From Pseudomonadota bacterium (GTDB taxonomy: Bacteria; Pseudomonadota; Alphaproteobacteria; Sphingomonadales; Sphingomonadaceae), in assembly GCA_046733935.1 (NCBI GenBank), contig JBKPQH010000026.1, positions 2,905 to 66,904 of the forward strand: 64,000 nucleotides of DNA. The letters are read 5' to 3'. The stretch's first letter is position 1; the number at the start of each line of letters is the position of its first letter. Below are positions 29,370-58,248 of the stretch, piece by piece. Position numbers and translations under genes: made by a program. The notes beneath the pieces were generated by a model, which did not search any database, was not told where the DNA came from, and saw only the letters and a list, made by a program, of their open reading frames with translations.

Positions 29370-29444
29370 TGGGGCGTCGCCAAGTGGTAAGGCACCGGTT
29401 TTTGGTACCGGCATTCGCAGGTTCGAATCCTGCCGCCCCAGCCA
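29370..29444 (+). tRNA. tRNA-Gln (anticodon TTG)
   Basis: TGGGGCGTCGCCAAGTGGTAAGGCACCGGTTTTTGGTACCGGCATTCGCAGGTTCGAATCCTGCCGCCCCAGCCA. Close to remembered E. coli tRNA-Gln. Anticodon loop TTTTGGT. Confidence 0.85.
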
Positions 29445-29457
29445 ATTCGAGCAACAG

Positions 29458-30300
29458 TTACTCCGTGAGCAACGGCTCGAATTCTTTCACGAGGCGGTCG
29501 ATCGCAAGCATCTGCGAAAGATAAGGCCGCAGCGCGGAAAGCGGCAAGGCGGACGGCCCGTCGCAAAGGGCTTTGTCCGGGTCCGGGTGGGCTTCGACGA
29601 AGAGCCCTGCAATTCCGAGCGCCATTCCAGACCGCGCAAGCGCTGTTGCTTGATCTCTTCGGCCTCCTGCGCTGTCGCTGCGGCCGCCGGGGTGCTGGAG
29701 CGCATGGGTCGCGTCGAAGACCACTGGCGCGAGCGATTTCATCTCGTCCATCCCGAGCATGTCCACCACGAGGTTGTTGTAGCCGAAGCTCGTGCCGCGC
29801 TCGCAAAGGATGACCCGGTCGTTTCCGGCTTCTCGGCACTTGTCGATGATGTGCTGCATCTCCCTGGGAGCGAGGAACTGCGGCTTCTTCACATTGATCG
29901 CCGCGCCAGTCTCGGCGATCGCCATGACCAGGTCCGTTTGCCGCGCAAGGAAAGCCGGCAGCTGGAGGATGTCGGCGACCTCCGCTGCGGGCGTCGCCTG
30001 ATGCGGCTCGTGGACATCGGTGAGGATCGGGACATCGAAGCGGCGTTTGACGGCGGCGAGGATATTCAACCCCTCGTCCAGCCCAGGTCCGCGGAATGAG
30101 TGGATCGAGGAGCGATTTGCCTTATCGAAGGAGGCCTTGAAGACGTAGGGTATGCCGAGCTCGCGAGTGATCTCCACAAACGCGCTTGCGACTTCCATGA
30201 CCAAATGCTCGTTCTCGATGACGTTGATTCCGCCGATCAGAACGAATGGGCTGCCGTTCGCGAACGTGATTCCGCCGGGGAGACTGACGCTTTCAGGCAA
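29458..30300 (-). CDS. kdsA: 3-deoxy-8-phosphooctulonate (Kdo-8-P) synthase
   Basis: Track ORF 29458..30411 trimmed to in-frame TTG 30300, which sits 8 nt after [18 protein letters not shown]...[11 protein letters not shown]...VKKPQFL...FDATHALQ. Confidence 0.85.
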
Positions 30301-30462
30301 GAGTGGACTCCTCTTCAACTTCTCAAACTGGCGTTTGCGCCGGCAAGCACTGCTGAATCGCCGCGGCCATATCTTTCTTGCCAGGAATTTCCAGAAGGCA
30401 CCCTTTCCCACATCGGGTGAGACTAAAAGCGGACCGGCGCTATCTCTTGGCTCGAGAGCTTA

Positions 30463-31332
30463 TCAAGAAAAGGACCGCAACCGCTGCAGGTAAGCTGCGT
30501 AGTCACCTTTCCCGAGGCGGCCGATTGCGCGGTCGAGGCCTGCCTCGTCGATAAAGCCGCTGCGCCACGCAATCTCTTCGGGACAGGCGATTTTCATCCC
30601 TTGGCGTCGCTGGAGCGTGCCCACGAACTCCGCCGCATCGAGCAATGTGTCGGGCGTGCCCGTGTCGAGCCAGGCATATCCACGACCCATGAGCTCGACC
30701 TTGAGCTGACCGCGATCCAAGTAGGCGCGATTGACGTCGGTGATCTCGAGCTCTCCTCGCGCCGACGGGCGAAGACTGGCTGCGATATCCACGACTTCGG
30801 GATCGTAAAAATAGAGGCCGGTAACCGCCCAGTTCGAGCGCGGCTGCGCCGGCTTCTCCTCGATCGACAACGCCCGCATGCGTTCGTCGAACTCCACAAC
30901 ACCATATCGTTCCGGATCCGCCACCTGGTAAGCAAAAACGGTTGCTCCCGTCGGGTCTTTACTGGGCTGTTGAAGGACATCGGACAGGCCGTGGCCAAAG
31001 AAGATGTTGTCGCCGAGCACCAGGCATGACGGTCCGCCGGCGATGAAATCCGCTCCGATCGTGAAGGCTTGGGCAAGGCCTTTGGGCTCCGGCTGAACGG
31101 CGTACGAAATGGCCATGCCCCAGTGCGATCCATCCCCGAGCAGATGCTGGAAGGCGCCCGCGTCATGAGGAGTGGTAATGACCAGCACCTCGCGAATGCC
31201 GGCGAGCATCAGGGTCGTAAGGGGGTAATAGATCATCGGCTTGTCGTAGACGGGCATCAGCTGCTTCGAGACGGCGAGGGTCATTGGATACAACCGGGTG
31301 CCGCTACCGCCTGCGAGAATGATCCCCCTCAT
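30463..31332 (-). CDS. rfbA: glucose-1-phosphate thymidylyltransferase
   Basis: [18 protein letters not shown]. 289 aa. Confidence 0.95.
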
Positions 31333-32240
31333 GACTGCGATGCTCCCACGAAATTGAGTTCACGCACAAGTCGATGAACGATGTCCGGGATGGAGGTCCG
31401 CCAGTCTGGCAACCGGACGGAATGAATGCGCTCGACCTTCGAGCAGTCGAGGCTCGAATTGAAAGGTCGCTTCGCAGCGGTTGGGTATTCGGCCGTACTG
31501 ATCCTTCGAACTCGAGCGGTCGGGCCATCGATCGAGCCGGAAGCGGAGAAGATCGCTTCCGCGAAATCCGCCCAGGTTGCTTGACCGACCGCCGTCAGGT
31601 GGAAGATGCCTCGCAAATCCGCTTTGTCCGACGCGATGAGGTTGCCTGCGATGCTCAGCAGCCCGGCGGCGATATCCAGGGCACTGGTCGGATTGCCGTG
31701 CTGGTCGGCCACTACCGCAACCTCGTCGTGCTGGGCGCCGATGCGAAGCATCGTCTTGGCGAAATTCGAAGCGAACGGACTGTAGACCCACGCCGTGCGG
31801 ACGATCGCTGAATTGCCACATGCTTCCCGAACGGCCTTTTCCCCGGCCAGCTTCGAAGCTCCGTAGACGCCCGTCGGGTCTGTCTCGTCGCCTTCGACGT
31901 AGGGCCCGGCCTTGCTGCCGTCGAAAACATAATCGGTCGAAAGATGGATCAGCGGCACGTCGAGCGATGTTGCCGCCCGAGCGACAGCGCGCGCGCCGTG
32001 CTCGTTGACGGCGAACGCGACATCCGGCTCCGATTCCGCCCGATCTACGGCCGTATAGGCAGCAGCCGACACGATTACGTCGGGCGAAACGGCGGCAAGC
32101 GCGTCCCGAATTGTCTCGGGATCTCCACGCAGATCGAAGCCAGGCCGGCCGAGCGGCACCACTTCGTATGCCGTTTCGGCAGCACGCTCGATCAGGGATC
32201 GGGCAACTTGCCCTTCTCTGCCTGTGACGGCGATCCGCAT
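31329..32240 (-). CDS. rfbD: dTDP-4-dehydrorhamnose reductase
   Basis: Track ORF trimmed to ATG 32240 ([16 protein letters not shown]). Stop overlaps the rfbA start. Confidence 0.85.
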
Positions 32241-32251
32241 CGAGCGAGAGC

Positions 32252-33310
32252 CTAGGCCCGGCCCTTGTCGAGCAGACCAAGGCGCTGCCCGGAATAGCGT
32301 TCGCGAAGCGGCTGCCACCACCATTCGTTATCCAGATACCACTGCACCGTTTTCTCGATGCCGGTGTCGAAATTCTCCTGGGCGCGCCAACCAAGCTCGG
32401 TTTCCACCTTCGTGGCATCGATCGCGTAGCGCGCATCATGGCCGGGGCGGTCAGTAACGAAGGAAATCAGTTCGTGTCGTGGCCGATTGGCCGGCGCAAT
32501 GGCATCGAGAACCTCGCAGATGCGCTCGACCACGTCGATGTTTCGCCGCTCGTTACGGCCGCCGACATTGTATGTCTCGCCAATGCGGCCGCGATCCGCG
32601 ATGATGTCGAGGGCACGGGCGTGATCCTCTACATAGAGCCAGTCACGCACATTCTCCCCCTTGCCGTACACCGGCAGCTGCTCACCATTGAGCGCGTTCA
32701 GGATCGTCAATGGGATGAGTTTCTCGGGAAAGTGGAACGGCCCATAGTTGTTCGAGCAGTTGGAGACGACGACGGGTAACCCATAGGTTCTGTGCCATGC
32801 CTTCGCGAGATGATCGGCAGAAGCTTTTGACGCGGAGTAGGGAGAGCTCGGATCGTACGGCGTTTCTTCGGTGAAGAGTCCGTCCTGACCCAGGGAGCCA
32901 TACACCTCGTCGGTTGAAACGTGGAGAAAACGAAATTCGGGTCGGCGCTTTGGCTCCAATCCAGACCAATAAGCTCGCGCTGCCTCGAGCAAATTGAAAG
33001 TCCCGATGACGTTTGTCTGGATGAACTCGGCGGCACCGGTAATCGACCGGTCCACGTGACTCTCGGCAGCCAGATGCATGATGCGATCGGGCGCAAATTC
33101 TCCGACAGCACGGTCCATTGCGCTCCGCTCGCATATATTCGCGTGCAGGAAGCGGTAATTGGCCTTGTCTTTCACCGACCTGAGAGAATCCAGGTTGCCC
33201 GCGTATGTTAGCGCATCGATGTTGAGGACTTCATAGCCCTTGTCGAGAACCAGGTGTCTGACGACGGCAGAGCCGATGAATCCGGCGCCTCCGGTGATGA
33301 TCACCCGCAT
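32252..33310 (-). CDS. rfbB: dTDP-glucose 4,6-dehydratase
   Basis: Trimmed to ATG 33310 ([17 protein letters not shown]). [11 protein letters not shown] (YxxxK). Confidence 0.95.
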
Positions 33311-33918
33311 GGTCGGCGTTCTACCGAGAATAGAGGCGGCAGATTCGCAAAGCTCGGCAGTCCGCGATCCTTCGCGGAAAGCGTTTCGGGATCTGCCACG
33401 TCCGGCCATTCAATGCCGATCTGGGGGTCGTTCCAGAGCACGCCCATATCGTGTTCGGGGCTGTAATAGTCCGTCACTCGGTAGGTGATGGCTGAATTGG
33501 GCTCGAGCGTACAGAATGCATGCCCGAAACCGATCGGAATCCACAGCTGGTTGAGCTTCTCGGCAGTCAGCACCAAGGAGATCGACCGCCCATAGGTGGG
33601 AGAGTCTCGGCGAAGGTCTACGGCCACGTCGAAGATCGAGCCGGAGATGCACCGCACGAGCTTCCCTTGTGCATGCGGGGCGCGTTGAAAGTGGATCCCG
33701 CGGATTGTCCCAGGGCGAACGCTCAGCGATTGATTGTCCTGGACGAACTCGACGGAACCTGTCCGGCTGACGAGCGGCGCCATTCGCAGGATCTCGGAGA
33801 AAAAGCCGCGCTCGTCGCCGTGTTTTGTCGGCAGGATCTCGAGAGGACCCTCGATGTCGAACTCACGAAATTCCACCCGCTCTCCGAGACCCGTCAGTCC
33901 AGTCCGCCGGTCATACAC
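33301..33918 (-). CDS. rfbC: dTDP-4-dehydrorhamnose 3,5-epimerase
   Basis: [10 protein letters not shown]...IRGIHFQ. RmlC cupin. The start may be an internal GTG (~33876). Confidence 0.9.
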
Positions 33919-33991
33919 GCTAATTTCCGCATGTGCCCCTCTCTTCGCGGCCCTGGATCACGCCGACACACTCAAGCGGCGCTTGCGGTCG

Positions 33992-34861
33992 TCAGATCGC
34001 CCCTTCTGCGCCGCAGAGCAGCGCCGCGTCACTGCTCAACTCGACTTCGACTCCGGCGTCGACGAGCAGGCACTCCCCGGCTGAAGCACGATCCCGGCCC
34101 GCACGGACATGACCGTTGAGCGGAGCCAACCAGCGGCGACGGTCCACTATCGATGCAAGCATTTGTCCGTGCGACGAGACACGCATCAGAGAGAAGATCG
34201 GACCATTCACAAGGATGCTGTCGGAGTCACCCGACGGACCCGAACCGTCCTGATCGTATGGAGCAGTCGTGGATACCGCGAGAGCCTCCTCGAGATGCAA
34301 TTCACGTGGGCGCCCGTAGTCGTAGAGGCGGTAGGTAACATCGGCGTTCTGTTGAAACTCAAGGAGGGTAATGCCCCCTCCAATGGCGTGGATCGTCCCC
34401 GCCGGAACGTAGAAGAAATCGCCTGCTCGAACGGCCTTCCAGTCCATCAATTCATCGAGAAATCCAGCAGCGGCGGCTTCGCGCAGCTTGGCGACCGAGG
34501 TTTCTTCGCGCAGACCGAGACCCAGTCTCGCACCGGGCTGTGCCTCAAGAATATACCAGCATTCGCTTTTTCCTCGCCGAAGGCCGCGTTCGCGCGCCTG
34601 CACGTCGTCTGGATGAACTTGAACGGAGAGTCTTTCGCTTGTGAAGATGTATTTGACCAGCAGCGGGAGTTTGGCCGAGTTCGGCCCGTCGAACCAGATC
34701 TCGCCGATGCGCCGGCCGGAGGTCTGTCCGAACATGGAAGGAATGGCGGTCCGGCCCCATGGCTTCTCCACCTGCCTTGGAACGAATTTCAATACGCGGC
34801 TCCCAGTGCGTGTGCGACATGCAGTGTCATCGGAAATGGGACGGCAAGCCTGTTGCCGCAA
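33992..34861 (-). CDS. manA: class I mannose-6-phosphate isomerase-like cupin
   Basis: VEKPWGR..IGEIWF...LSVQVHPDD...ECWYIL. TTG start. Confidence 0.7.
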   Translation of the reverse strand: MRQQACRPISDDTACRTRTGSRVLKFVPRQVEKPWGRTAIPSMFGQTSGRRIGEIWFDGPNSAKLPLLVKYIFTSERLSVQVHPDDVQARERGLRRGKSECWYILEAQPGARLGLGLREETSVAKLREAAAAGFLDELMDWKAVRAGDFFYVPAGTIHAIGGGITLLEFQQNADVTYRLYDYGRPRELHLEEALAVSTTAPYDQDGSGPSGDSDSILVNGPIFSLMRVSSHGQMLASIVDRRRWLAPLNGHVRAGRDRASAGECLLVDAGVEVELSSDAALLCGAEGAI

Positions 34862-35064: not shown

Positions 35065-36003
35065 GTGGACATCAGCGAAGAGCTTGAGCAACTTAAATTG
35101 AGGGTAGCGGCGCTCGAGCAAGGCAAGCCCGATTGGCTTACCGTCAAGGAAATGATCCGTACCAGCGTACTTCAGCCGCCGTTGGACGGACCAACGGTAC
35201 CGGCAACGGTTCCGTTCATGGAACATTCCAACTGCGTTGCCGAGGACTTTGTCCATCCCCGCTACTTCCAGCTCTGCAAGCTGATCGAAGAAGCACCGGT
35301 ATGGCATCGCAAGCAATGGGAATATGTTTTCATCCTGCATCACCTGGATAAGGCGGGGCTGCTGACTTCCGGCCGGCGTGCCGTAGGATTCGGTGTGGGC
35401 CTCGAGCCGTTACCGTCGGCATTTGCTCGTCTCGGCGTTCAGGTACTCGGAACGGATGCACCTTCCGAAATAGGTGAAGCGGCCGGTTGGGCTCAGAACA
35501 AGGAGCACACGAAGGGCTTGGCCGAGATGCGCTTCGCGTGGGTTCCCGAAGATGTGTTCAAGTCCCGCGTATCCTTCCAGGAATGCGACATGAACCAGAT
35601 CGACCCTTCCATTCGCAACTTCGACTTCGCCTGGTCGTCCTGCTGCTTCGAACACTTGGGATCCATCGAAGCGGGGCTGGATTTCGTGCGCAACAGTGTT
35701 GAGTCGTGCCTCAAAGTCGGCGGCGTCGCAGTCCACACGACCGAGCTCAACATGAGTTCCGATACCAAAACGATTGAGGAAAGCCCTGAAACGGTACTTT
35801 ACCGCAGGTCTGACCTCAGCTCATTCCTCGATGAGATGACCTTGCGTGGACATTCGGTCATGCCGTTGCGGATTGCTCCCAACGCCCATGCGCTCGATTT
35901 CTACGTCGACGTTCCGCCCTACAGTCAAAACCCGCACCTGCGGCTCCAGTTGGCTGGTTATGCAACCACGTCAGTTGGCCTGGTCATTCGCCGGGGTCGC
36001 TGA
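35065..36003 (+). CDS. SAM-dependent methyltransferase (polysaccharide-associated)
   Basis: 312 aa. HRKQWEYVFI...AVGFGVGLEPLPSAFARLG (motif I-like)...FDFAWSSCCFEHLG. Visibly lower GC than its neighbours. Confidence 0.65.
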   Translation: MDISEELEQLKLRVAALEQGKPDWLTVKEMIRTSVLQPPLDGPTVPATVPFMEHSNCVAEDFVHPRYFQLCKLIEEAPVWHRKQWEYVFILHHLDKAGLLTSGRRAVGFGVGLEPLPSAFARLGVQVLGTDAPSEIGEAAGWAQNKEHTKGLAEMRFAWVPEDVFKSRVSFQECDMNQIDPSIRNFDFAWSSCCFEHLGSIEAGLDFVRNSVESCLKVGGVAVHTTELNMSSDTKTIEESPETVLYRRSDLSSFLDEMTLRGHSVMPLRIAPNAHALDFYVDVPPYSQNPHLRLQLAGYATTSVGLVIRRGR

Positions 36004-36128
36004 TCCACCGATCGCCGCCGTTGCTGAGAAGGGGTTGCCGGATGGGCTGGGACAATCTCTCACCACCGAGGAGGGGTCGCCGCGGCTCAAGCGGCGGCAG
36101 CCCCTTCGTGTGATAGTTGGAGCGGGGG

Positions 36129-37469
36129 TTAGACTATGGTCGCTGGCGGTTCCGTGTGCCAGCTGGTGGGAGTATGGTACAGCGCAGCGGCGTTCCACGC
36201 GAAGCTTCCGTCGGCTTGCCCCGACCATTGGGAAAGCACGCCCGAATCGTCACGCCACAGGATGTCGTCGCGTAGGTCGCTGTTGTAATCGCCGATGGCG
36301 ACGATGTGCCAGTTGGCTGGCGTCTGGTAGATCGCCGCCGGGTTCCACGCGAAGCTTCCATCCGCCTGGCCGAGCCACTCGGACAGGACTCCACTGTCGT
36401 CACGCCACAGGATGTCGGCTTTGAAGTCGCCGTTGAAGTCGCCGGTGCCGACGACGTGCCAGCTCGCCGGGGTCTGGTAGATCGCATTGGGGTTCCAGGC
36501 GAAGCTCCCGTCGGCCTGGGCCAGCCACTCGGAGAGCACTCCGTTGTCGTCCCGCCACAGGATGTCGTCGAGACCGTCAGCATTGAAGTCGGCGGTGCCG
36601 GCCACGTGCCAGCTGCCGGGCGTCTGATAAATCGCGCTCGGGTTCCAGGCAAAGCTGCCGTTCGATTGGCCGAGCCATTCGGACAGGACTCCACTGTCAT
36701 CGCGCCACAGGATGTCCTGCCGCCCGTCGCCATTGAAGTCGTCGGTGGAGGCGATGTGCCAAGTGCCGGGGGTTTGGTAGACCGCGTTGGGGTTCCACGC
36801 GAAGCTGCCGTTGGGTTGGCCGAGCCATTCGGACACCACCCCAGCGTCGTCTCGCCACAAGACGTCGATACGGCCGTCGGCGTTGAAGTCCGCCGTGCCG
36901 GCAACGTGCCAGCTGCTCGCCGTCTGATACATCGAGGACGGGTTCCAGGCGAAGCTGCCGTTGCCCTGCGCCAGCCACTCCGACAACGTGCCGGAACTGT
37001 CGACCCACAGCAGGTCGCTGCGCCCGTCGCCGTTGAAATCGTTGTTTGCCGGGGCCACCAACCGGATATCGATGCCATTTTGAATGTCGGTGACCACGAG
37101 CCGGCCTGGCCCAATGTTGCTAATCGTTACGGAGCCGCCATTGTAGGTCAGGCCGGTTGCGGTGACGGTCACGTTGGCGGTCTGGGTCGTCAGCCCAGTG
37201 ATCTGGATGTGATCACCGATCTGCAGATCCGTTATGGTGTCACCGTCGAGACCGGACGCAGAGTCCTGGAACGTATCGATGCCGGTTCCACCGGTCAGCG
37301 TGTCTGTGCCAACTCCGCCCGTAAGAATGTCGTTGCCCGGCCCGCCGTCTATTGTGTCATTGCCGCCGTTTCCCTCGAGGGTGTCGTTTCCGTCCAGCCC
37401 GAGCATCGTGTCATCCAGGTCGCTGCCCTTAAGCAGGTCGGTACCGCTCGTCCCCGTAATCGTTGCCAT
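36129..37469 (-). CDS. RTX (hemolysin-type calcium-binding) + FG-GAP/VCBS repeat protein
   Basis: 446 aa, no signal peptide. aa 20-66 are GGxGxD nonapeptides (GNDTLEGNGGNDTIDGGPGNDILTGGVGTDTLTGGTGID). Six DFNGDG-type repeats start at aa 144, 194, 244, 294, 344 and 394. Confidence 0.85.
   Translation of the reverse strand: MATITGTSGTDLLKGSDLDDTMLGLDGNDTLEGNGGNDTIDGGPGNDILTGGVGTDTLTGGTGIDTFQDSASGLDGDTITDLQIGDHIQITGLTTQTANVTVTATGLTYNGGSVTISNIGPGRLVVTDIQNGIDIRLVAPANNDFNGDGRSDLLWVDSSGTLSEWLAQGNGSFAWNPSSMYQTASSWHVAGTADFNADGRIDVLWRDDAGVVSEWLGQPNGSFAWNPNAVYQTPGTWHIASTDDFNGDGRQDILWRDDSGVLSEWLGQSNGSFAWNPSAIYQTPGSWHVAGTADFNADGLDDILWRDDNGVLSEWLAQADGSFAWNPNAIYQTPASWHVVGTGDFNGDFKADILWRDDSGVLSEWLGQADGSFAWNPAAIYQTPANWHIVAIGDYNSDLRDDILWRDDSGVLSQWSGQADGSFAWNAAALYHTPTSWHTEPPATIV
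36150..37040 (-). repeat. six in-frame 150-bp tandem repeats (FG-GAP blades)
   Basis: Exact 50-codon periodicity, counted from the translation. This is a coding repeat, not CRISPR. Confidence 0.85.
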
Positions 37470-37746: not shown

Positions 37747-38532
37747 TTAGCCGCGCTCACCACGCTCGACCGGCGCCGGAGGCGGCGGCGGGGGAGGCGG
37801 AGGCGGCGGGCACGTATCCGTCGCCGCGATGACGCTGCCGTCGGGGCAGGTCTGCGTCGCCGGAGGAGGCGGCGGCGGCGGAGGCGGCGGGGGCGGCGGA
37901 GCAGCCTCGGCAACCGACGCACCAAAGAGGTATCCTAGACCGACCAGTCCTACGAGACGGTGGGTGCCACCCGAATTCTGCTTGCGCTTGTAATCCGAGT
38001 AACGACCCTCGAGGCTCGCGTAGAAGCCGCCGCTGATCATCTGGTTGATCCCGGCGCCCCACTGCCAACCATTGACCTTGTAGTGGTTGTAGTAAGCACC
38101 CGGCAGAGCCGAATCGAGCACGCCGGCCGAATTGAACGGCGTGAAGCGCTTCCGCTGCTCATTCCGGACGTAGCCGACCTTGCCGTAGACGAGGGTCGAC
38201 GGGGTGACATTCACGCCCGCCCGAAGCGCGATCGCCCACTCCTCGAACGACTTATGCTCGGCGAGGCCAGGGCCGTCGATCGTGCGGACTTCATTGGGAG
38301 CCCACCAATAGGTGAGTTCCGGCCCAAGCACGAACCCGCCGAGGTCGAAGTCGACGCCGGCAGCGCCGCCGACACCCAGCTTGGTGTGGTGGTCGCCGTC
38401 GGCGTTGAACTGGTCAGCGCCGGCCTGGGCTTCGACGCGGAAGCCGCGAAGGCCCTGGGCATTCGCCTGCTGGGCTGCGAGCACCGAAACGAGCGCGAGC
38501 GCCGTGAAAGTACCTTTACGAAAGAGCGTCAT
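37747..38532 (-). CDS. outer-membrane beta-barrel (OmpA-like/porin-family barrel) with poly-proline tail
   Basis: 261 aa. Signal peptide ...QQANAQG. Alternating aromatic/Gly beta-strand pattern ending LVGLGYLF. Then 13 Pro, ATQTCPDGSVIAATDTC, 11 Pro (counted from codons). Confidence 0.8.
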   Translation of the reverse strand: MTLFRKGTFTALALVSVLAAQQANAQGLRGFRVEAQAGADQFNADGDHHTKLGVGGAAGVDFDLGGFVLGPELTYWWAPNEVRTIDGPGLAEHKSFEEWAIALRAGVNVTPSTLVYGKVGYVRNEQRKRFTPFNSAGVLDSALPGAYYNHYKVNGWQWGAGINQMISGGFYASLEGRYSDYKRKQNSGGTHRLVGLVGLGYLFGASVAEAAPPPPPPPPPPPPPATQTCPDGSVIAATDTCPPPPPPPPPPPAPVERGERG

Positions 38533-40243: not shown

Positions 40244-40309
40244 CCATAAACGGCGTCCTCCCGGGGGCGCCGGATTGTATTTGCTGGTGCGGAGGACACC
40301 TCAACCCAA

Positions 40310-49694: not shown

Positions 49695-50747
<1,053 letters not shown>

Positions 50748-50781: not shown

Positions 50782-51681
50782 ATGCCACGTACACTCATCA
50801 CCGGAATCGGCGGGTTCACCGGTCGGTATCTCGCGCCGGTCCTGGCAGGTTTGGGGCACGAAGTGCATGGAATCGTGCATGTCTCCGATGGACACCCTGT
50901 TGACGGCGCGCACAGGCTTTACCAAGCGGACCTAGCGGATCTTGCAAGCGTGGAGCGTATCGTCTCGGAGGTTCGCCCCGATCATGTAGCTCATCTCGCT
51001 GGCATTGCGTTCGTAGCGCACTCAGACGTCGACCAAATGTATCGTGCGAATGTCGTGGGCACCCGGCAGCTGCTCGAGGCGGTCGCCAGTTTGACCATAG
51101 TGCCCAAGTCGGTGCTGATCGCCAGCAGCGCCAACGTCTATGGAAACGCGCACGAGGGGCTACTCGCTGAGAGCAGCATGTTGGCTCCGGTTAATGATTA
51201 CGGGGTGAGCAAGGTTGCCACTGAGTACGTCGCTTCGATTTACAAAGGGCGTTTGCCCCTCATAGTTGTACGACCGTTCAATTACACCGGCAGGGGGCAA
51301 GGTTCGCAGTTCATCATTCCAAAGATCGTTGAACATGCGCGGACCCGGGCGCCGGTTATCGAATTGGGCAATCTCGACGTCGCGCGCGATTTCTCCGATG
51401 TGCGAACTGTGGTGGACGTTTACGCACGGCTGCTTGCGGAGCCGAAAGCGGTCGGGGGAACGTTCAACGTATCTTCAGGCCGCGCGGTCGCTCTAAGAGA
51501 CGTAATAGAAATCGTTCAAAGCATCTCGGGTCATAGTTTTGGGGTTCACGTGAATCCGGCGTTCGTACGAGCCAATGAAGTGCGAACGCTGTGCGGATCG
51601 GCAGCCAAGCTCCAGCAGGTTATTGGCCCACTGCCCGCAATTCCGCTCCAGGAAACATTGCGCTGGATGCTCGAAGGCTAG
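50782..51681 (+). CDS. rmd: GDP-4-keto-6-deoxy-D-mannose reductase (GDP-D-rhamnose synthase; a talose-forming homologue is not excluded)
   Basis: 299 aa. ITGIGGFTGRYL, YGVSKVATE (YxxxK), VVRPFNYTGRGQ, LDVARDFSDVR. Matches remembered P. aeruginosa Rmd. Confidence 0.75.
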   Translation: MPRTLITGIGGFTGRYLAPVLAGLGHEVHGIVHVSDGHPVDGAHRLYQADLADLASVERIVSEVRPDHVAHLAGIAFVAHSDVDQMYRANVVGTRQLLEAVASLTIVPKSVLIASSANVYGNAHEGLLAESSMLAPVNDYGVSKVATEYVASIYKGRLPLIVVRPFNYTGRGQGSQFIIPKIVEHARTRAPVIELGNLDVARDFSDVRTVVDVYARLLAEPKAVGGTFNVSSGRAVALRDVIEIVQSISGHSFGVHVNPAFVRANEVRTLCGSAAKLQQVIGPLPAIPLQETLRWMLEG

Positions 51682-51685
51682 CTAA

Positions 51686-52813
51686 ATGCGTGTGACGCTC
51701 TGTGTCGATGCGTTGGAGCCTCAACTCGGTGGCATCGGCCGATACACGTGGGAGCTGTGCAAGCGACTTCCGCAAAGCAGCCAGATATCGACAGTGCAGT
51801 TCATCCGCGCCGGCTCGCTGGTCGAAGACCCTGCTCTTCTGCGCCGCGACGAGAAGTATCGCCCGAGCTTCTTCCGGCGCCATCCGAGGTGGCTGAGGAG
51901 GTGGCGGGCCCGGACAGCCCTCCAATCGGGGCTCGTCCATGGACCGAATTATTTCCTGCCCCGTGAAGCTGAGACGGGAATTATCACAGTCCACGACCTT
52001 TCGGTTTTCCGGTACCCCGACATGCATCCAGCCGAACGCGTCAGAGCTTTTGATCGGCTGTTTGCATCGTCCCTTGGTCGAGCCGCTCACGTCGTCACCG
52101 ACACGGAAACGGTCAGAGGCGAGCTAATTGATGCATTCTCGCTCGCGCCCGGGTTTGTATCGGCCGTGCCCCTCGGGGTTGATGCCCGTTTCGCGCCGAA
52201 GAACCGCACTGAGGTTGCCAGTACGATCGAGCAGTGGCGTCTCGAGCCGGGCTGCTATGGTCTCAGCGTTGCTGCCTTCGAGCCGAGAAAGAAGATTGCG
52301 GAGCTGCTTGCCGCATGGCGACGGCTGCCGAATGACATTCGTGCCCGACATCCATTGGTGCTCGCGGGTGGGGCGGGCTGGCAGAATCAGCCACTCCACC
52401 AGCAGATTTCAAGCGCCGTGTCGGAAGGCTGGCTCAAATACATCGGCTTCGTGGACGACGCGCACTTGCCCGCGCTTTATGCGGGAGCACGGCTGTTCAT
52501 CTACCCATCTGTGTACGAGGGCTTTGGCCTTCCACCCGTCGAAGCGATGGCCAGCGGAACGCCGGTGGTGGTAGCAAATCGCTCGTGCTTGCCTGAAGTC
52601 TGCGGCGAAGCGGCGCAGTTTGTTGACCCTGACGATTCCGACAGCTTCACGTCCACAATCGAGCTATGCCTTGTAGACCAGGAATGGCAGTCGAGCGCCA
52701 TTGCCCGCGGCCTAGAGCGCGCGGCGCGGTATACTTGGGAGCTTTGTGCCGCGCAGACGGTCGAGGTCTATTCGAAGGTATATGGCGAGATTTGCGGCTC
52801 TCCGGCGGGTTGA
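51686..52813 (+). CDS. glycosyltransferase family 4
   Basis: 375 aa. GGIGRYTWEL and PSVYEGFGLPPVEAMASGTPVV. Confidence 0.85.
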   Translation: MRVTLCVDALEPQLGGIGRYTWELCKRLPQSSQISTVQFIRAGSLVEDPALLRRDEKYRPSFFRRHPRWLRRWRARTALQSGLVHGPNYFLPREAETGIITVHDLSVFRYPDMHPAERVRAFDRLFASSLGRAAHVVTDTETVRGELIDAFSLAPGFVSAVPLGVDARFAPKNRTEVASTIEQWRLEPGCYGLSVAAFEPRKKIAELLAAWRRLPNDIRARHPLVLAGGAGWQNQPLHQQISSAVSEGWLKYIGFVDDAHLPALYAGARLFIYPSVYEGFGLPPVEAMASGTPVVVANRSCLPEVCGEAAQFVDPDDSDSFTSTIELCLVDQEWQSSAIARGLERAARYTWELCAAQTVEVYSKVYGEICGSPAG

Positions 52814-54566
52814 CTGGCCAGGCGCGAAGATACAGATCGTGAGCGCTCGATTGGGGGTACTCGTGGACGGTTGCTCCGTCTCTAAATCATTGGCAGAGAA
52901 CCAGAAACCCGGATACTCGGAAAATTCAGCGGGCGGCGGCGCGGATGTAGTGGAATTGATCGACACGGCTCAGTTCCTGGCGATCCCGCCGTTCCCTCGC
53001 GCACGTGTTCAATCGTTCGCCATCGTGGACTCGTGTGAGCGAACAGACAGTGAACTGGTCGATCTCGTTCGTCGGCACAGGGTCGGCGGGACCTATTGGG
53101 CGACGCAGCCCCGCTTGCCCGTCCAGTATGTCGTCGTCCGTACAGCCGCAGCCATTTCGGCGTTGAGGAATGCAAGCGAGCCGCTCGTGCTCTGGACAGG
53201 TGGGGAAGCACCGCCCGACAACGCCGCCTCTGTCGTTGCGACCGGCGCCTGCGATCCGTGGCACATGCTCAGTGGGGCGACGATGCTCGTCGCTTCTCAG
53301 GAAGACGAGGTATCGCTCATCGCTTCGGTTCTCGGGGTGCCTGTGAAGCTCTTCGACGCCGAGACCGGGAGCCTACATCCGCTGGCGCCGGACACCGCGA
53401 CGGAATTCTTTAAAGCGCTGTCCAAGAATTTATACCGGAATCCCTTCACCAACGAGCCCATGAGTGCGCGTGAAGCCGTGGAGCTTTGCGGCTTCTGGCG
53501 TCGCATGATCGACAGCAATCGCGACCTCGCCGGCGGTCTGGGCTTTGCTTTCTGGAAGCAGGATCAAATCTCGCTTCTTTTGTGGGGCGGCTCGGAGCCT
53601 TTGCGGTTCCTGCGCAATTCTCACCAGGCACGGGCGGACGGGCCTGTGGCCGTGTGGCGCGCGAAAGCTTCCGTTGAAGCGCTCTCCGCACTTCAGCGAG
53701 CCGAGGTGCCGCTAATCGAGGTCGAAGACGGATTCCTGCGGTCGCAGGGCCTTGGGGCGGACTGCGTGCCGCCGCTGTCCATCACCGTGGACCGGCTTGG
53801 TGCCTACTTCGACCCGGCACGACCGAGTGAGCTCGAGCAGCTTCTTCAAGCAGGCGAGTTCGACGCTGCACTGCTTCGTCGGGCCAGGCGGCTGGCGAAG
53901 CTGATTGTGCACGCGGGCCTCGGCAAATATGAGCGCGCCGATGCCCCGGCCATGGCGCGCCCGGCCGGTGAGCGGCGGCATATCCTCGTGCCCGGTCAGG
54001 TCGAGGACGATCGCGCCGTGCAAACCGGTGGCTGCGGGCTGGTCTCCAATCTTGAGCTGCTCAAGCGCGTCAGGGCCGAAGCGCCAGGAGCTTACATCCT
54101 CTACAAGCCGCATCCCGACATACTGGCCGGTCATCGCCGCGGTGCGATCACTGAACGGGATTGCCTTCGTTACGCGGACGCAATCGTCACGGACGCGCCC
54201 ATTTCATCGCTGATCGCAATGGTGGACGAAGTGCATGTGAACACCTCGCTCGCCGGGTTCGAAGCACTGATGCGCAGAAAGCAGGTCACGACCTACGGCG
54301 TTCCCTTCTACGCCGGGTGGGGCCTTACACGCGATCTCGGGCCGGTGCCCCCACGCCGAACAGCGCGCCGCTCCCTCGACGAGCTCGTCGCCGCGACCTT
54401 GTTGGTTTACCCGCGCTACCTCGATCCCGTAACCGGCCTCCCGTGTCCGGCCGAAGTCGTCGTGGACCACCTCAGCAGTGGCCCAAGCCGTCATTCAGGT
54501 CTGATCGTGATAATGCGCCGCCTTCAGGGAAAGCTCATGCGGGCCTTCGGGAGCGTGGTCCAGTGA
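52782..54566 (+). CDS. kpsC: KpsC-type beta-Kdo transferase (capsule lipid-linker extension)
   Basis: EVEDGFLRSQGLG, VPGQVEDD, YKPHPD, NTSLAGFEALM..VTTYGVPFYAGWGLT. Start uncertain: ATG 52782, GTG 52839 or GTG 52950. Confidence 0.8.
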   Translation: MARFAALRRVDWPGAKIQIVSARLGVLVDGCSVSKSLAENQKPGYSENSAGGGADVVELIDTAQFLAIPPFPRARVQSFAIVDSCERTDSELVDLVRRHRVGGTYWATQPRLPVQYVVVRTAAAISALRNASEPLVLWTGGEAPPDNAASVVATGACDPWHMLSGATMLVASQEDEVSLIASVLGVPVKLFDAETGSLHPLAPDTATEFFKALSKNLYRNPFTNEPMSAREAVELCGFWRRMIDSNRDLAGGLGFAFWKQDQISLLLWGGSEPLRFLRNSHQARADGPVAVWRAKASVEALSALQRAEVPLIEVEDGFLRSQGLGADCVPPLSITVDRLGAYFDPARPSELEQLLQAGEFDAALLRRARRLAKLIVHAGLGKYERADAPAMARPAGERRHILVPGQVEDDRAVQTGGCGLVSNLELLKRVRAEAPGAYILYKPHPDILAGHRRGAITERDCLRYADAIVTDAPISSLIAMVDEVHVNTSLAGFEALMRRKQVTTYGVPFYAGWGLTRDLGPVPPRRTARRSLDELVAATLLVYPRYLDPVTGLPCPAEVVVDHLSSGPSRHSGLIVIMRRLQGKLMRAFGSVVQ

Positions 54567-55894
54567 ACAAGCCGGTGCCCAATCTTGCGCCATCGTTGCA
54601 GGCGACCGACGGGGGAGAACGTGGACGGCGGTCTCGCAAGCCGGCTGTTGCACAGCGGGAGCACCGCTCATTCCTCTTCCTGCAGGGTCCTCCGGGCCCG
54701 CTCTTTCGCGAACTGGGCATGGTCATGGTCCAGCTCGGCTTCCGAATTTACCGGATCAATCTCAGCGGCGGCGACCTGCATGACTGGCCGGATGCGACTG
54801 TCAATTTCCGCGGCCGCTTCTCGGACTGGCCGGTCTTCGTCGACAAGTTCCTTCGCGAGCACGGGATCACCGATCTTGTGCTGTTCGGCGACTGCCGTCC
54901 TTATCACGTCTCCGCACACGGCGTGGCGGGCGTTCGCGGGATCCGCACTCACGTGCTCGAGGAAGGATATCTGCGCCCGCACTGGATGACGCTCGAACCG
55001 GAGGGCGTGAACGCACGCTCCACTCTCAGTCGCGACAAGGACTGGTTTCACAAGGAAGCGCAGCGCCTCGGACCTGAACCGATGCTGCCGCCTGTCACCG
55101 CCAGTTTCAGGCGGCGGGCTCGAGATTCATACTGGCATTATCACCACGTCGTGGCCGGTCGTCTGCAATTTCCCCACTATCGGTCGCACCGGTCAGGCTC
55201 GATCATTTTCGAAGGCTTCGGCTGGGTGTGGAAGTTCCTGCGCCAGAAGCGGGAACGGAGCCGCACGGCGAAGGTGCTCGGGGAGTTGAGAGGCAAGTCC
55301 CTCTTCGTGCTGCCGCTTCAGCTATCTGGCGATTTCCAGATCCGTGCCCACTCGGCCTTCCCCGACATGCAGAGCGCCGCGCGTTACGCGATCGAGAGCT
55401 TTGCGGCGCACGCTCCTTCGGACATGCATCTGCTGCTGAAGGCGCATCCGTTGGATTGCAGCTTTTTCGATTGGGCGGGCTTCGTGCGCCGCCATGCACG
55501 TCGACTGAGCCTCGACAGCCGGCTTCATTATGTCGATGGCGGCGACCTCAATAAGATAGTCCACCGCGCCCAAGGGCTCGTGTGCGTGAACAGCACGTCA
55601 GCGACGCTCGCTCTGGCGAAAGACACTCCGGTCTGCACCATCGGGGAGGCGATCTACGACATGCCGGGCCTGACGCACCAAGGCCACCTCGACACGTTCT
55701 GGTGCGATCCGACGGGACCCGAGCCCGGCCTTTATCGCGCCTTTCGCCGCGTTCTTGTGGACCGTTGCATGGTTCGCGGCGGGCTCGCGAGCGAGTCTGC
55801 AGTCGCGACTCTGATCGAGTCCATCACCGACAGGCTATGTCGCCAATCTTCGGTTCAAAGCGAAGAGAGCCAGGAATCGACGCTGGCGAAGTGA
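54563..55894 (+). CDS. kpsS: KpsS-type beta-Kdo transferase (capsule lipid-linker initiation)
   Basis: GTG 54563 overlaps the kpsC stop (GTGA). FLFLQGPPGPLF...LEEGYLRP...LPLQLSGDFQIRAHS. Confidence 0.8.
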   Translation: MNKPVPNLAPSLQATDGGERGRRSRKPAVAQREHRSFLFLQGPPGPLFRELGMVMVQLGFRIYRINLSGGDLHDWPDATVNFRGRFSDWPVFVDKFLREHGITDLVLFGDCRPYHVSAHGVAGVRGIRTHVLEEGYLRPHWMTLEPEGVNARSTLSRDKDWFHKEAQRLGPEPMLPPVTASFRRRARDSYWHYHHVVAGRLQFPHYRSHRSGSIIFEGFGWVWKFLRQKRERSRTAKVLGELRGKSLFVLPLQLSGDFQIRAHSAFPDMQSAARYAIESFAAHAPSDMHLLLKAHPLDCSFFDWAGFVRRHARRLSLDSRLHYVDGGDLNKIVHRAQGLVCVNSTSATLALAKDTPVCTIGEAIYDMPGLTHQGHLDTFWCDPTGPEPGLYRAFRRVLVDRCMVRGGLASESAVATLIESITDRLCRQSSVQSEESQESTLAK

Positions 55895-57012
55895 TTTGCC
55901 CACGTCGGCGCCTGGTATCCTTTCAAGCGCGTTAGCTGAGCGTCTCGGGCGGGACTGTTCTCTTGGGCGTAGGAGTTGATGGCGCGCTCCCACGCCGGTC
56001 CGTCCAATGGGTCCAGATAATCCGGGACATCGCCGGCAATCTCGCGGAACACCGGCAGATCGCTTGCAATGACCGGCGCACCGGCGCGCAGAGCTTCGAC
56101 TACAGGCAGGCCGTAGCCTTCGACCAGGCTTGGAAAGAGGAGCGCGCGTGTTGTTGCGAGATGAGCAGCTAGAGTCTGGTCGTCACATCGGCTCATCTCC
56201 GTCACTGCACCTTGCAGAATCGCACTGCGCTCGAGCAAGTCGACGGCCTGCTCGGACTCCCAGCCCCTTTGGCCGATCACCAGCAGTTGCGGCGCGCGTT
56301 CGCCCAGCCGCGCCACGATTCGCGACCACACGTGCAACAACATCAGGTGGTTCTTGCGCGCCTCAATCGTGCCGAGGACGACGAAGGTCGAGCGAGGCGG
56401 CGGGGCAGGTGGGCCCGTCGGTTGGGCTGCCGCATCGCTGCCGAGCAGCGCGGCGACCATGGCTGGGCAGGGCAGGCCCCCCTTTCGAGCAAAGCACCTG
56501 AGATCGTCAAGCGTCGTGTGGCTGTTGCCGATCACGCCTGCGGCGCTGCTCAAGACGGTCCGCATGCGGTCCTCGTGCTTGGGCTTCTCGCCCGCACGGC
56601 AGAACTCGGGGTGCGTGATGGGGATCAGGTCATGAACGAAATACACCGGACGCACGCCGGCGTCGCTGACCCACCTCCGGAACCGAGGATCGTTTAGTCC
56701 GGTATGACCGATGTTCAGGTAAAGACGACCACGGCCATCGCAACTGTTTCTCGGTGCGTACCTCAGCCCGCCAAACACCAAAGACCTTCGAAATCCCGTC
56801 CCCGGCTGCAGCAGCATGTCGAAGAGGGCGCCGGAGGACTCCCTGTCGAGGATACGTTGGATTCGCGAGTGCTGCACAACAGCTTGTGACTCACTGGCAT
56901 ATCGATCGAGATAGGCCAGACAGACTCGGTCAATCCCCGTAGGGTATCGCCCCACCCACCGCCGCCACACGAGACGCGTGACATCGAGCAGGAGAGGGGC
57001 GTCGTTACTCAG
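55855..57012 (-). CDS. glycosyltransferase family 4
   Basis: Track ORF starts at GTG 56970. The conserved N-terminal LLLDVTRL lies upstream, suggesting CTG 57012 (see findings). C-terminal FPSLVEGYGLPVVEA. Confidence 0.75.
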   Translation of the reverse strand: MSNDAPLLLDVTRLVWRRWVGRYPTGIDRVCLAYLDRYASESQAVVQHSRIQRILDRESSGALFDMLLQPGTGFRRSLVFGGLRYAPRNSCDGRGRLYLNIGHTGLNDPRFRRWVSDAGVRPVYFVHDLIPITHPEFCRAGEKPKHEDRMRTVLSSAAGVIGNSHTTLDDLRCFARKGGLPCPAMVAALLGSDAAAQPTGPPAPPPRSTFVVLGTIEARKNHLMLLHVWSRIVARLGERAPQLLVIGQRGWESEQAVDLLERSAILQGAVTEMSRCDDQTLAAHLATTRALLFPSLVEGYGLPVVEALRAGAPVIASDLPVFREIAGDVPDYLDPLDGPAWERAINSYAQENSPARDAQLTRLKGYQAPTWANHFASVDSWLSSL

Positions 57013-57021
57013 GTGACCTCG

Positions 57022-58248
57022 TCAAGGGGCGATCGTGCGGACGGTAGCAACCGGCAGGATTGAGGAGCTCAGCAGGTTCAGGAAACGCTGAAAGTCGGCG
57101 ACGCGCGAATTCGAAACATAAATGATGTCACCGTCGCGCATGCGGAAGTGCTGGGCGGCGAAGAACGTACTCGGCTGTTTTAGATCCACTTGGTAGATGA
57201 TCGGAACTAGCCCTTCGGCGTTCGGCTGCAGGCCTTGCGCAATCGGCCCGAGCAATTGCGGATGTTCCCACCGGAAGAGGAACACTCCCCGCGGGTCCGC
57301 GCGCTGGTCCTGTAATCCTCCGATGCGGCCGAGCGCTTGCGCGAGCGTCAATCCGACACCTTCGAACCGGACCTCATCGTTTCTCCCGGTCGCCCCCATC
57401 ACGGTGAAGCTATAGGGCTGATAAAGTGCGGTCACGACGTCGTCACTTCGAAGGATGACGTTCTGTCGCGGATCTTGAACGAGGTCACGCGCTGCCATCC
57501 GTTGAACGACACCACCGCGAGTGATCTCGACGGTCATTCGGTCAAGCGGCTGGCTTGTGCCGCCAGCCTCGGCGATGGCGTCGAGGAGGCGCTCGCCGCG
57601 TGGTGTGAGTGGCACCCGCTGCGGGCTCTTCACGTCACCGAGGACAGTCACGTTGGCCGTTGCGTTGCGCGCGAGCCGCACCACCGCTTGCGGTAGATGG
57701 GCTTTGCCTTGCAAGCGGCGGACAATTTCTCGCTCGATCTCGCGTAAAGTGCGGCCCGCCGCAGGTACTTGCCCTGCGAAAGGGATCGTGATCGCGCCAG
57801 AGGGCCCCACGAGTATTCCTGGAAGCGTGTTTGGCCGGCTCGTCTGAACGGGCGATCCGATCCCAGTATCGAAGTTCGTGGCAGTACCGAACAAGGCCGC
57901 CGGCGCTGCCTCCCAGATCGTGACTTCGAGCGTGTCGCCGACACCAACCCGTGTCCCGATAGGGGTCGCATCGCCGATGCGCGTAGCGAAATCGCCCCGC
58001 AGCTCGGCGACGTTCACCTGCTGCGCGACTTGATCCGTGACCTCCACGAGGCGCAATCCTGCTGGTGCACTTATCGGAGCTCTCACTATCTCCTTGGTCG
58101 TGGGTCCGACCGCAGTACATGCAGGCAGAACGCAGAGTGCCGCTCCAAGCCACACACAAGACGCTCTAGCTGCAGTTCGCCGCTTCGATGTCGCTGTTCG
58201 CGCCACCGACGTGCGCGCTAAAGTACTGATCAAGGCCGATAATCCCAA
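57022..58248 (-). CDS. outer-membrane polysaccharide export protein (OPX, Wza-like)
   Basis: 408 aa. Possible lipobox VLPAC. Poly_export-type segment (GDTLEVTIWE) followed by SLBB-like repeats. Confidence 0.8.
   Translation of the reverse strand: MGLSALISTLARTSVARTATSKRRTAARASCVWLGAALCVLPACTAVGPTTKEIVRAPISAPAGLRLVEVTDQVAQQVNVAELRGDFATRIGDATPIGTRVGVGDTLEVTIWEAAPAALFGTATNFDTGIGSPVQTSRPNTLPGILVGPSGAITIPFAGQVPAAGRTLREIEREIVRRLQGKAHLPQAVVRLARNATANVTVLGDVKSPQRVPLTPRGERLLDAIAEAGGTSQPLDRMTVEITRGGVVQRMAARDLVQDPRQNVILRSDDVVTALYQPYSFTVMGATGRNDEVRFEGVGLTLAQALGRIGGLQDQRADPRGVFLFRWEHPQLLGPIAQGLQPNAEGLVPIIYQVDLKQPSTFFAAQHFRMRDGDIIYVSNSRVADFQRFLNLLSSSILPVATVRTIAP

Follow-up and report, generated by a model that had tools for sequence, protein, structure and literature searches.

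A Kps-type capsule locus with a putative FkbM-family ruler/terminator in a Sphingomicrobium-like sphingomonad

Positions 29370-58248 of the 64,000-nt window analysed here (the whole stretch of DNA, taken from contig JBKPQH010000026.1 of a Sphingomonadaceae bacterium) hold a polysaccharide locus, which is probably a capsule locus dependent on an ATP-binding cassette (ABC) transporter of the Kps type (group 2/3-like), equipped with a putative FkbM-family ruler/terminator protein and belonging to a Sphingomicrobium-like soil sphingomonad. Its gene content indicates a real, so far uncharacterised variant of the Kps capsule system. Gene identities, operon coupling, domain architecture, a hypervariable coil length and synteny across phyla are observed directly, and the reading is built on them. 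We re-annotated the span by calling open reading frames (ORFs), by Pfam and NCBIfam scans, and by inspection of start codons. The scans bore out, gene by gene, the layout given by the original prediction, namely a plus-strand run from manC to kpsS followed by a glycosyltransferase (GT) and an OPX gene on the minus strand (lengths in amino acids, aa):

39095-40243, plus strand: manC, mannose-1-phosphate guanylyltransferase; NTP_transferase 1.1e-43, ManC_GMP_beta-helix, TIGR01479 7.7e-100
40310-41452, plus strand: kpsE, PCP-3 inner-membrane/periplasmic adaptor; TIGR01010 (BexC/CtrB/KpsE) 2.6e-107, 357/380 aa
41452-42258, plus strand: kpsM, ABC-2 permease; ABC2_membrane 2.9e-11, NF050053 (KpsM) 2.6e-32, below the curated cut-off
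42255-42917, plus strand: kpsT, ABC ATPase of 220 aa; sole domain match ABC_tran 4.6e-16
42914-44179, plus strand: GTa, a GT4 enzyme immediately upstream of the FkbM gene; Glycos_transf_1 4.9e-13
44182-46194, plus strand: FkbM methyltransferase with coiled coil and DUF4214, 670 aa; PF05050 9e-24, PF13946 8e-8, TIGR01444 1.2e-14; 100% identical to P0001
46191-49565, plus strand: three-module GT of 1124 aa, putative polymerase; GT4 (aa ~1-340), GT2 (aa ~360-570), GT4 (aa ~690-1090)
49713-50747, plus strand: gmd, GDP-mannose 4,6-dehydratase; GDP_Man_Dehyd 5.4e-137, full-length
50782-51681, plus strand: Rmd-like GDP-4-keto-6-deoxy-D-mannose reductase (short-chain dehydrogenase/reductase), called from PDB sequence matches
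51686-52813, plus strand: GTb, a GT4 enzyme conserved downstream of rmd; Glycos_transf_1 3.3e-25, Glyco_transf_4
52782-54566, plus strand: kpsC; Capsule_synth 2.7e-43, PDB KpsC 6mgd 9.4e-64 (C-terminal half); start uncertain, ATG at 52782 or GTG at 52839
54563-55894, plus strand: kpsS, predicted beta-Kdo transferase priming the lipid acceptor; Capsule_synth 6.2e-66, NF050054 (KpsS) 1.5e-67
55855-56970, minus strand: GTc, a GT4 glycosyltransferase; Glycos_transf_1 8.8e-15
57022-58248, minus strand: OPX of the KpsD/CtrA/Wza class, 408 aa; Poly_export 6.9e-15, SLBB_2 2.5e-22, SLBB 2.1e-10, NF011658 4.9e-36

The plus-strand run is translationally coupled at seven tight junctions (overlap or a gap of <=4 nt), the number that had been given as a minimum and that start-codon inspection confirmed. 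These are a 1-nt overlap between kpsE and kpsM, ATGA overlaps at kpsM/kpsT, kpsT/GTa and FkbM/three-module GT, a 2-nt gap at GTa/FkbM, a 4-nt gap at rmd/GTb and a GTGA overlap at kpsC/kpsS. A terminator-like GC-rich hairpin (40251-40272) lies between manC and kpsE, and a 560-bp AT-rich intergenic stretch (38533-39094) lies upstream of manC; together they suggest that manC may be transcribed separately from the kpsE-kpsS run.

The proposed anchoring and export chassis is of the Kps type, with KpsE, KpsM, KpsT, OPX, KpsC and KpsS present, and the KpsC and KpsS calls stand up to the profile check through their Capsule_synth matches. KpsE matches TIGR01010 from end to end with 359 bits, under the curated cut-off of 437, while KpsS reaches 228 bits with NF050054 against a cut-off of 600 and carries the motifs QLSGD and AHP (QxxxD and HP); a PDB sequence search with KpsS returned no usable match. 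The window KpsT shares 62-80% identity with its counterparts in related loci. The same genes could be read as an undecaprenol-linked Wzm/Wzt pathway for an O-antigen or exopolysaccharide, resembling that of the Pseudomonas aeruginosa common polysaccharide antigen (CPA), with the Kps names over-called. KpsM, KpsT and KpsE do score under the NCBIfam curated cut-offs, the best named NCBIfam matches of KpsT are TagH and Wzt, and the biosynthetic half (gmd, rmd, GT4 enzymes and methyltransferase) resembles the CPA or the P. syringae TET locus. We give this reading very little credence, given the end-to-end KpsE match, the presence of an OPX protein, and a KpsS and KpsC that both have Capsule_synth with the QxxxD and HP motifs (KpsC matching PDB KpsC at 9e-64). 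Among the locus ORFs there is no match to an initiating phosphoglycosyltransferase (Glycos_transf_4 of the MraY/WecA type, and thus no WecA/WbpL-type enzyme, or Bac_transf), to Wzx, to Wzy or to WaaL (Wzy_C), which argues against an undecaprenol-linked route. In addition, the true Wzt proteins found next to FkbM homologues elsewhere are only 30-35% identical to the window KpsT and carry Wzt_C.

KpsC holds a single canonical beta-Kdo (3-deoxy-D-manno-octulosonate) transferase module of family GT107 at aa 272-567, where both the QVEDD and the KPHPD motif are found and nowhere else in the protein. The N-terminal ~270 aa (52782-53591) are divergent, with neither motif and no Capsule_synth match at E<=1, so that the KpsC call of the original prediction stands with one recognisable module and not two. 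The same holds for most related loci, in which a single module is recognisable, preceded in sphingomonads, Ralstonia and Cupriavidus by a degenerate N-terminal part; a Rhodobiaceae locus (L028) has a KpsC with a clear dual GT107 module. In Legionella qingyii (L029) and Fluoribacter gormanii (L047) a GTc-like GT4 takes the place of this N-terminal part and apparently shares one 777-aa ORF with a single GT107 module, and in 10 non-sphingomonad loci the gene directly upstream of kpsC, in the same orientation, is GTc. We therefore propose GTc as the first transferase on the Kdo linker. As for the supply of CMP-Kdo, kdsA is the sole gene for it in the window, from which kpsU is also absent and in which lpx, waaL, kdsB and kpsF were not found; Sphingomonas ginkgonis has kpsF-kdsB-kdsA within its syntenic locus.

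In the AlphaFold2 model of the 670-aa FkbM protein an alpha/beta head (aa 1-208, predicted local distance difference test score, pLDDT, about 90) is followed by one unbroken helix of 169 residues (aa 226-394), a disordered linker, the helical DUF4214 domain (aa ~460-555, positions 45502-45850, pLDDT above 90), and two further helical parts at aa 559-609 and aa 642-667. The hydrophobic periodicity of the long helix at 3.5 residues is 50.6 versus 18.4 ± 11.3 in shuffles, of which 15 in 1000 attain that value. When 22 homologues are aligned, a conserved FkbM head of ~220 aa, in which the columns DxGA...E...KxDxEGxE are invariant, stands apart from a region of long indels and a conserved block that includes DUF4214. 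In a set of 110 homologues, the spacer that separates the head from DUF4214 is 222 to 486 aa long (standard deviation 50), while the anchor within the head has a standard deviation of 4. No transmembrane segment is predicted. Searched against the PDB by sequence, the protein gave nothing at E<=1 apart from a KaiC match that is spurious, and Foldseek with the full model gave generic Rossmann methyltransferases only, the sugar O-methyltransferase MeT1 among them. By analogy, this architecture supports the FkbM protein as a putative chain terminator and molecular ruler. In the C-terminal 230 aa with DUF4214, Foldseek also finds a weak, non-significant likeness to the phycobilisome linker (PF00427; best hit 3ohw, E=0.63, probability 0.92).

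The company kept by homologues of this protein was examined by scanning a genome collection, in which 330 relatives were found; 80 loci were fetched, and all window proteins were compared with them by tblastn. Kps genes co-occur with DUF4214-bearing relatives in 30/38 loci, versus 7/43 for the others (Fisher p=1e-8). In relatives without DUF4214, which match the window protein in the FkbM head only, the head is followed by a coiled coil that varies in length and by the conserved motif SWRxTxPxR; these relatives directly follow a long Wzt-like ATPase that is 30-35% identical to the window KpsT. Where the Wzt neighbours of DUF4214-less relatives were tested, Wzt_C was present in both (2/2; 2.8e-28 and 1.2e-37). 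In two cases, Pseudomonas carbonaria (L068, 9956-15286, 1776 aa) and Xanthobacter tagetidis (L032, 9899-14875, 1658 aa), the FkbM head and coil are fused to multiple GT4 modules; by analogy these would be WbbB-like all-in-one terminator-ruler-polymerases with a methyltransferase as cap enzyme. The Wzt_C and polymerase-fusion contexts are characteristic of O-antigen systems that depend on a cap, as in the terminators of O8/O9a/O12 (PMC11231755), and are the strongest indirect evidence in support of the FkbM head as a chain-capping enzyme.

The motif SW[RK]xTxPxR was noted after the coil in the FkbM/coil proteins of Wzt-type loci (L051, L033, L038, L043, L054, L068 and L032) and also after that of the non-homologous methyltransferase/coil protein of an Escherichia coli plasmid locus (L084, 3439-6174). 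At the equivalent place the window family has the motif G-x-W-x-R-L-G-x-x-L-G-L, and the two may be a shared docking element.

The remaining biosynthetic genes lie to the left of manC, as follows:

29458-30411, minus strand: kdsA, Kdo-8-phosphate synthase; NF003543 6.9e-123 and TIGR01362 3.7e-112 (both above cut-off), DAHP_synth_1 1.6e-69
30463-31332, minus strand: rfbA; Pfam NTP_transferase 2e-76
31329-32324, minus strand: rfbD; Pfam RmlD_sub_bind 3e-96
32252-33409, minus strand: rfbB; Pfam GDP_Man_Dehyd/Epimerase 5e-91
33301-33918, minus strand: rfbC; Pfam dTDP_sugar_isom 2e-60
33992-34861, minus strand: manA-like cupin, weakly called as a probable class I phosphomannose isomerase; PMI_typeI_cat E=0.003, Cupin_2 E=0.005, both sub-threshold
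35065-36003, plus strand: weakly called as a possible class I S-adenosylmethionine-dependent methyltransferase, with a short coil at its N-terminus; Methyltransf_23 E=0.006, Methyltransf_11 E=0.016, both sub-threshold

The earlier calls of manA and of a methyltransferase for the last two genes are plausible, with Pfam support that is only sub-threshold. Genes similar to the manA-like one lie next to manC in four sphingomonad loci (L001, L006, L014 and L018; 42-57% identity), and the methyltransferase-like ORF has its sole relative among the fetched loci in L037 (42%). Gmd, which is 70-86% identical across the Kps-type related loci, and the reductase support the earlier placing of gmd and rmd on a Kps chassis: the best PDB match of the reductase is 4lw8 (an unnamed putative epimerase of Burkholderia cenocepacia, 2.8e-83), and behind it rank two structures that are named as Rmd, 2pk3 (2.4e-39) and 6x3b (1.4e-31). 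The manA-like gene, manC, gmd and the Rmd-like gene would together lead to a GDP-6-deoxy-D-hexose, most simply GDP-D-rhamnose, while rfbA, rfbB, rfbC and rfbD are, by their profile matches, the dTDP-L-rhamnose pathway.

The predicted product, a D-rhamnan, proved too specific. The rfb genes are co-operonic with kdsA (transcription order rfbC, rfbB, rfbD, rfbA, kdsA, with kdsA last in the string), and the putative polymerase carries a GT2 module: its Pfam matches are two Glycos_transf_1, Glycos_transf_2 (7.9e-27) and Glyco_transf_4, its PDB matches are to GT4 and GT2 enzymes, and its N-terminal 340 aa alone match Glyco_trans_1_4 (5.5e-16). Because rfbCBDA is strung with kdsA and an inverting GT2 lies between the GT4 modules, a pure D-rhamnan is no more likely than a mixed D-/L-rhamnose or other hetero-polymer, and a simple D-rhamnan appears unlikely. 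The association of the GT2 module with the rfb genes across loci is too inconsistent to be claimed. GTa has homologues (35-63%) in nearly all related loci.

From this gene set we infer the biochemical steps that follow, together with the sugar stereochemistry and the terminator function. KdsA, with KdsB and KpsF encoded elsewhere, would supply CMP-Kdo; KpsS would prime a phosphatidylglycerol-type lipid with the first beta-Kdo, KpsC would extend the Kdo through its single intact GT107 module, and GTc would add the first non-Kdo sugar, after which GTa and GTb may build an adaptor. The GT4-GT2-GT4 protein would polymerise a 6-deoxyhexose glycan from GDP-D-rhamnose (made by ManA, ManC, Gmd and Rmd), with dTDP-L-rhamnose (RfbABCD) probably the second donor, used by the GT2 module. 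The FkbM O-methyltransferase would be held about 25 nm (169-residue helix) from its C-terminal docking region, so that chains reaching that length would be capped and their elongation stopped, as by WbdD, and KpsMT, KpsE and OPX would export the lipid-linked polymer. The transporter has no cap-reading domain, unlike the O8/O9a type, and capping would therefore set the length and not gate export. A more daring statement, which we offer tentatively and with less than even confidence, is that the FkbM/coil/DUF4214 protein is the first molecular-ruler terminator on a Kdo-lipid-anchored Kps capsule, that DUF4214 is the adaptor by which a terminator module also used in O-antigen systems is docked to the capsule polymerase, and that this sets chain length in a large, overlooked class of environmental and pathogen-related loci, giving a de facto O-antigen in sphingomonads that have no lipopolysaccharide (LPS).

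The locus could also be a Kps capsule locus in which the FkbM/coil protein decorates internal residues or scaffolds an enzyme complex, with no termination or measuring. The two methyltransferases of the P. aeruginosa CPA, PA5457 and PA5459, alter the structure of the polymer and are not length regulators of the WbdD kind (PMC3560663), so that methylation could be decorative here as well. Characterised ABC-transporter capsules such as that of Haemophilus influenzae type b have no terminating residue (PMC11231755), and the second, weak methyltransferase-like ORF at 35065-36003 suggests that methylation may be more general at the locus. PA5457 and PA5459 have no coils or docking domains, whereas the window protein has its 169-residue helix, hypervariable in length between flanking domains that are fixed, and the DUF4214-less relatives, encoded beside a Wzt with Wzt_C or fused to polymerases, stand in a diagnostic terminator context. 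On this evidence we hold a purely decorating or scaffolding role to be unlikely.

The possibility of decorative methylation is one of several points that weigh against a ruler/terminator on a Kps capsule. A profile scan of the 220-aa window KpsT found no Wzt_C carbohydrate-binding domain, and without it a terminal methyl group would have no obvious reader. The long coil comes from a monomer AlphaFold2 prediction, with a pLDDT of only 50-75. The FkbM protein has no homology to WbdD or WbbB, either by sequence (PDB) or by fold (Foldseek), and the literature searched holds no characterised member of the FkbM/coil/DUF4214 family. The WbdD-type terminator proposed earlier is thus retained for its methyltransferase/coil architecture and lost for its export coupling and its homology. 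On the side of the anchor, the N-terminal module of KpsC is unrecognisable, which means that the linker may not follow the pattern known from E. coli, and tblastn of the window with the KpsF and KdsB of S. ginkgonis returned nothing. On the side of the sugar, reduction at C4 by the Rmd-like enzyme may give either D-rhamnose or 6-deoxy-D-talose.

Compared with the group 2 systems of E. coli and Neisseria (KpsMTED with KpsFU and KpsCS, and poly-beta-Kdo on lyso-phosphatidylglycerol), the window shares KpsE, KpsM, KpsT, OPX, KpsS and KpsC, the placing of the serotype-specific genes between the transport genes and kpsCS, and a Kdo supply gene within the locus. It differs in the one recognisable GT107 module of KpsC, in having no kpsF or kpsU, in a short OPX (408 aa), and in its product, which is probably a neutral 6-deoxyhexose polymer and not acidic. 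It also has a coiled-coil methyltransferase, whereas the characterised systems are without a chain terminator (PMC11231755), and a 2025 review gives no mechanism for the chain length of ABC-transporter capsules (PMC12220298).

Almost identical in layout is an E. coli group 3 locus (plasmid 3B-type) on pPSJ-12_1 (NZ_AP027623.1), which has kpsD-M-T-E, a 912-aa methyltransferase/coil protein, a multi-module GT, further GTs, rfbBDAC and kpsC-kpsS. Its 912-aa protein has a Methyltransf_24 head, a Q/E/L-rich coil of ~530 aa and the motif SWKLTAPVR, and is without DUF4214; its polymerase is a dual GT2, and gmd and rmd are missing. Homology between the two methyltransferase/coil proteins was considered and rejected (BLASTP E=0.24, different Pfam heads), leaving them analogous only. 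The coil is also of variable length in the E. coli group-3 'putative methyltransferases' (PMC13171606), for which we found no functional study in the literature. The coil-methyltransferase design on a Kps chassis is therefore not unprecedented, the E. coli group-3 loci sharing its principle. For Rubrivivax gelatinosus, a cluster is tabulated that holds kpsM/T/E/D and gmd together with rml genes and a methyltransferase of the FkbM type (PMC3684757). With these clusters in view, the combination of two pathways in one locus on which the original prediction was centred is real but less chimeric than had been thought. No paper characterising the family of the window protein or this gene combination was found in the literature searched, which agrees with the earlier statement that no characterised equivalent was known.

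Among O-antigen systems, the terminators of the O8/O9a/O12 type are built from a catalytic cap domain, a coil acting as ruler and a docking region (PMC11231755). WbdD/WbdA (E. coli O8/O9a, Klebsiella O5/O3) and WbbB (Klebsiella O12) resemble the window in the order of N-terminal capping enzyme, long coil and C-terminal docking region (the capping and docking parts being putative in the window), in a multi-module GT, the putative polymerase, next door, in a homopolymer-like product derived from GDP-mannose, which for the window is a predicted one, and in a coil length that varies between homologues. They differ in that the window head is of the FkbM family without WbdD homology, that its polymer would sit on a Kdo-lipid and not on undecaprenyl diphosphate, that its transporter has no cap-reading Wzt_C, and that its C-terminus consists of DUF4214 and helices instead of the amphipathic helix of WbdD. 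The P. aeruginosa CPA (PMC3560663) and the P. syringae 'TET' operon share with the window gmd and rmd, rhamnosyltransferase-like GT4 enzymes and an O-methyltransferase to which a part in termination is ascribed; in P. syringae, moreover, the genes for L-rhamnose and for D-rhamnose lie together in the CPA 'TET' loci (PMC7820976). They differ in using Wzm/Wzt, with a binding domain at the C-terminus, in initiation by WbpL on undecaprenyl phosphate and in ligation to lipid A-core, none of which is seen in the window locus.

Capsule I of Burkholderia pseudomallei (wcb) places an O-antigen-like 6-deoxy-D-manno-heptan on a Kps-type chassis (homologues of KpsC/S, E, D and M/T), and makes its 6-deoxy sugar with a Gmd-like dehydratase and an Rmd-like reductase, the substrate being a heptose and not a hexose. 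We know of no coiled-coil methyltransferase in wcb.

Across the fetched loci the conserved core reads kpsE-kpsM-kpsT-GTa-FkbM/coil-[variable multi-GT]-gmd-rmd-GTb, with kpsC, kpsS, GTc and OPX nearby. The synteny check across Sphingomonadales that had been proposed found this core in six genera of the order, namely Sphingomonas (S. ginkgonis), Sphingomicrobium, Novosphingobium, Porphyrobacter, Sandarakinorhabdus and Aurantiacibacter, and also far outside it: in Polaromonas, Burkholderia puraquae, Paraburkholderia, Ralstonia edaphi, Cupriavidus basilensis, Legionella qingyii, Fluoribacter gormanii, Methylococcaceae, Geobacteraceae, Rhodobiaceae and one Verrucomicrobia genome. Its synteny spans alpha-, beta-, gamma- and deltaproteobacteria. 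The plasmid pTomTYG71b of Sphingobium sp. TomTYG71 (L082, 60 kb, typed as non-mobilizable) carries FkbM/coil, gmd, rmd and ctrA/C/D/wcbD-like export genes, which makes one version of the cassette plasmid-borne. On gene content and synteny, the cassette appears to be a widespread mobile module and not a sphingomonad invention.

This distribution bears on the rationale given earlier, that the system exists because sphingomonads have no lipid A, and displays an O-antigen-like, length-controlled polymer without LPS. The host is indeed a sphingomonad, as had been supposed: Dxs in the flank is 91% identical to a Sphingomicrobium sp. protein (96% to metagenomic proteins), which places the host in the Sphingomonadaceae. 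The closest relatives of every locus protein are in Sphingomonadales (Sphingomonas, Sphingomicrobium, Novosphingobium, Porphyrobacter, Sandarakinorhabdus and the Sphingobium plasmid), the locus contains a Kdo pathway gene, and the sphingomonad lineage is generally held to lack Kdo-containing LPS. Against this, the same cassette occurs in the LPS-bearing Burkholderia, Paraburkholderia, Ralstonia, Cupriavidus, Polaromonas, Legionella, Fluoribacter and Methylobacter, so that lack of LPS is not its rationale; it neither originated as a substitute for LPS nor is confined to that role. The GC content, 0.58-0.61 over the locus (29000-61000) versus 0.64-0.66 in the flanks, and the 60-80% identity of KpsT and Gmd across classes both fit the horizontal spread of a general-purpose module. 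The LPS-based explanation is weakened accordingly, and we regard it as decidedly improbable; a Kps capsule module of wide distribution is the reading we keep.

At its left edge the lower-GC polysaccharide region begins at a tRNA gene, and the flanking genes are housekeeping genes (rpsI, rplM, dxs, ctaA, map and others). The earlier description of nearly every coding sequence as polysaccharide-related was essentially right in its gene calls, but it omitted two genes within the locus (36129-37469 and 37747-38532) that do not code for polysaccharide enzymes. The additional features are:

29370-29444, plus strand: tRNA-Gln(ttg), left edge of the lower-GC polysaccharide region; ARAGORN, Rfam RF00005 63.8 bits
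36129-37469, minus strand: RTX/FG-GAP protein inside the polysaccharide locus, not a polysaccharide enzyme
37747-38532, minus strand: small outer-membrane protein (OMP) beta-barrel with a poly-proline C-terminal tail, not a polysaccharide enzyme; OMP_b-brl 5.2e-14
58354-60897, minus strand: larger RTX/FG-GAP paralogue just past OPX, also with a PPC domain and a serralysin-like M10 protease

Despite the lower GC content, a tRNA-flanked integrative island was rejected, as the 3' end of tRNA-Gln is not repeated in the window and the span holds no integrase. No RfaH/JUMPStart-type or other known RNA element was found in the window at Rfam gathering scores. The small OMP has homologues at the same position, between the manA-like gene and manC, in L001 (48%), L003 (65%) and L006 (62%), and thus appears to be a conserved accessory gene of the sphingomonad form of the locus; its C-terminus has two poly-proline runs on either side of a Cys-containing segment. 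The two RTX/FG-GAP paralogues are both of secreted type, with RTX repeats and a seven-fold FG-GAP region, and are 55% identical over 413 aa. They were considered as partners of the glycan (S-layer-like, for example), a role that is not supported, since they are absent from all syntenic loci.

The locus stands for at least 38 species-level relatives fetched, out of the 330 found. The finding that homologous heads lie beside O-antigen transporters bearing Wzt_C suggests that two systems with different lipid carriers have been equipped with one and the same kind of terminator module, and in the related loci KpsC is seen both as a single-module protein and, apparently, in fusion with the glycosyltransferase that acts next. 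For the sphingomonads, usually described as Kdo-free, the locus predicts a Kdo-containing glycolipid. It brings no new principle; with a capsule chassis and a terminator-type methyltransferase whose coil varies naturally, it would serve as a test case for Kps chain length, and its value is that this question of Kps capsules becomes testable.

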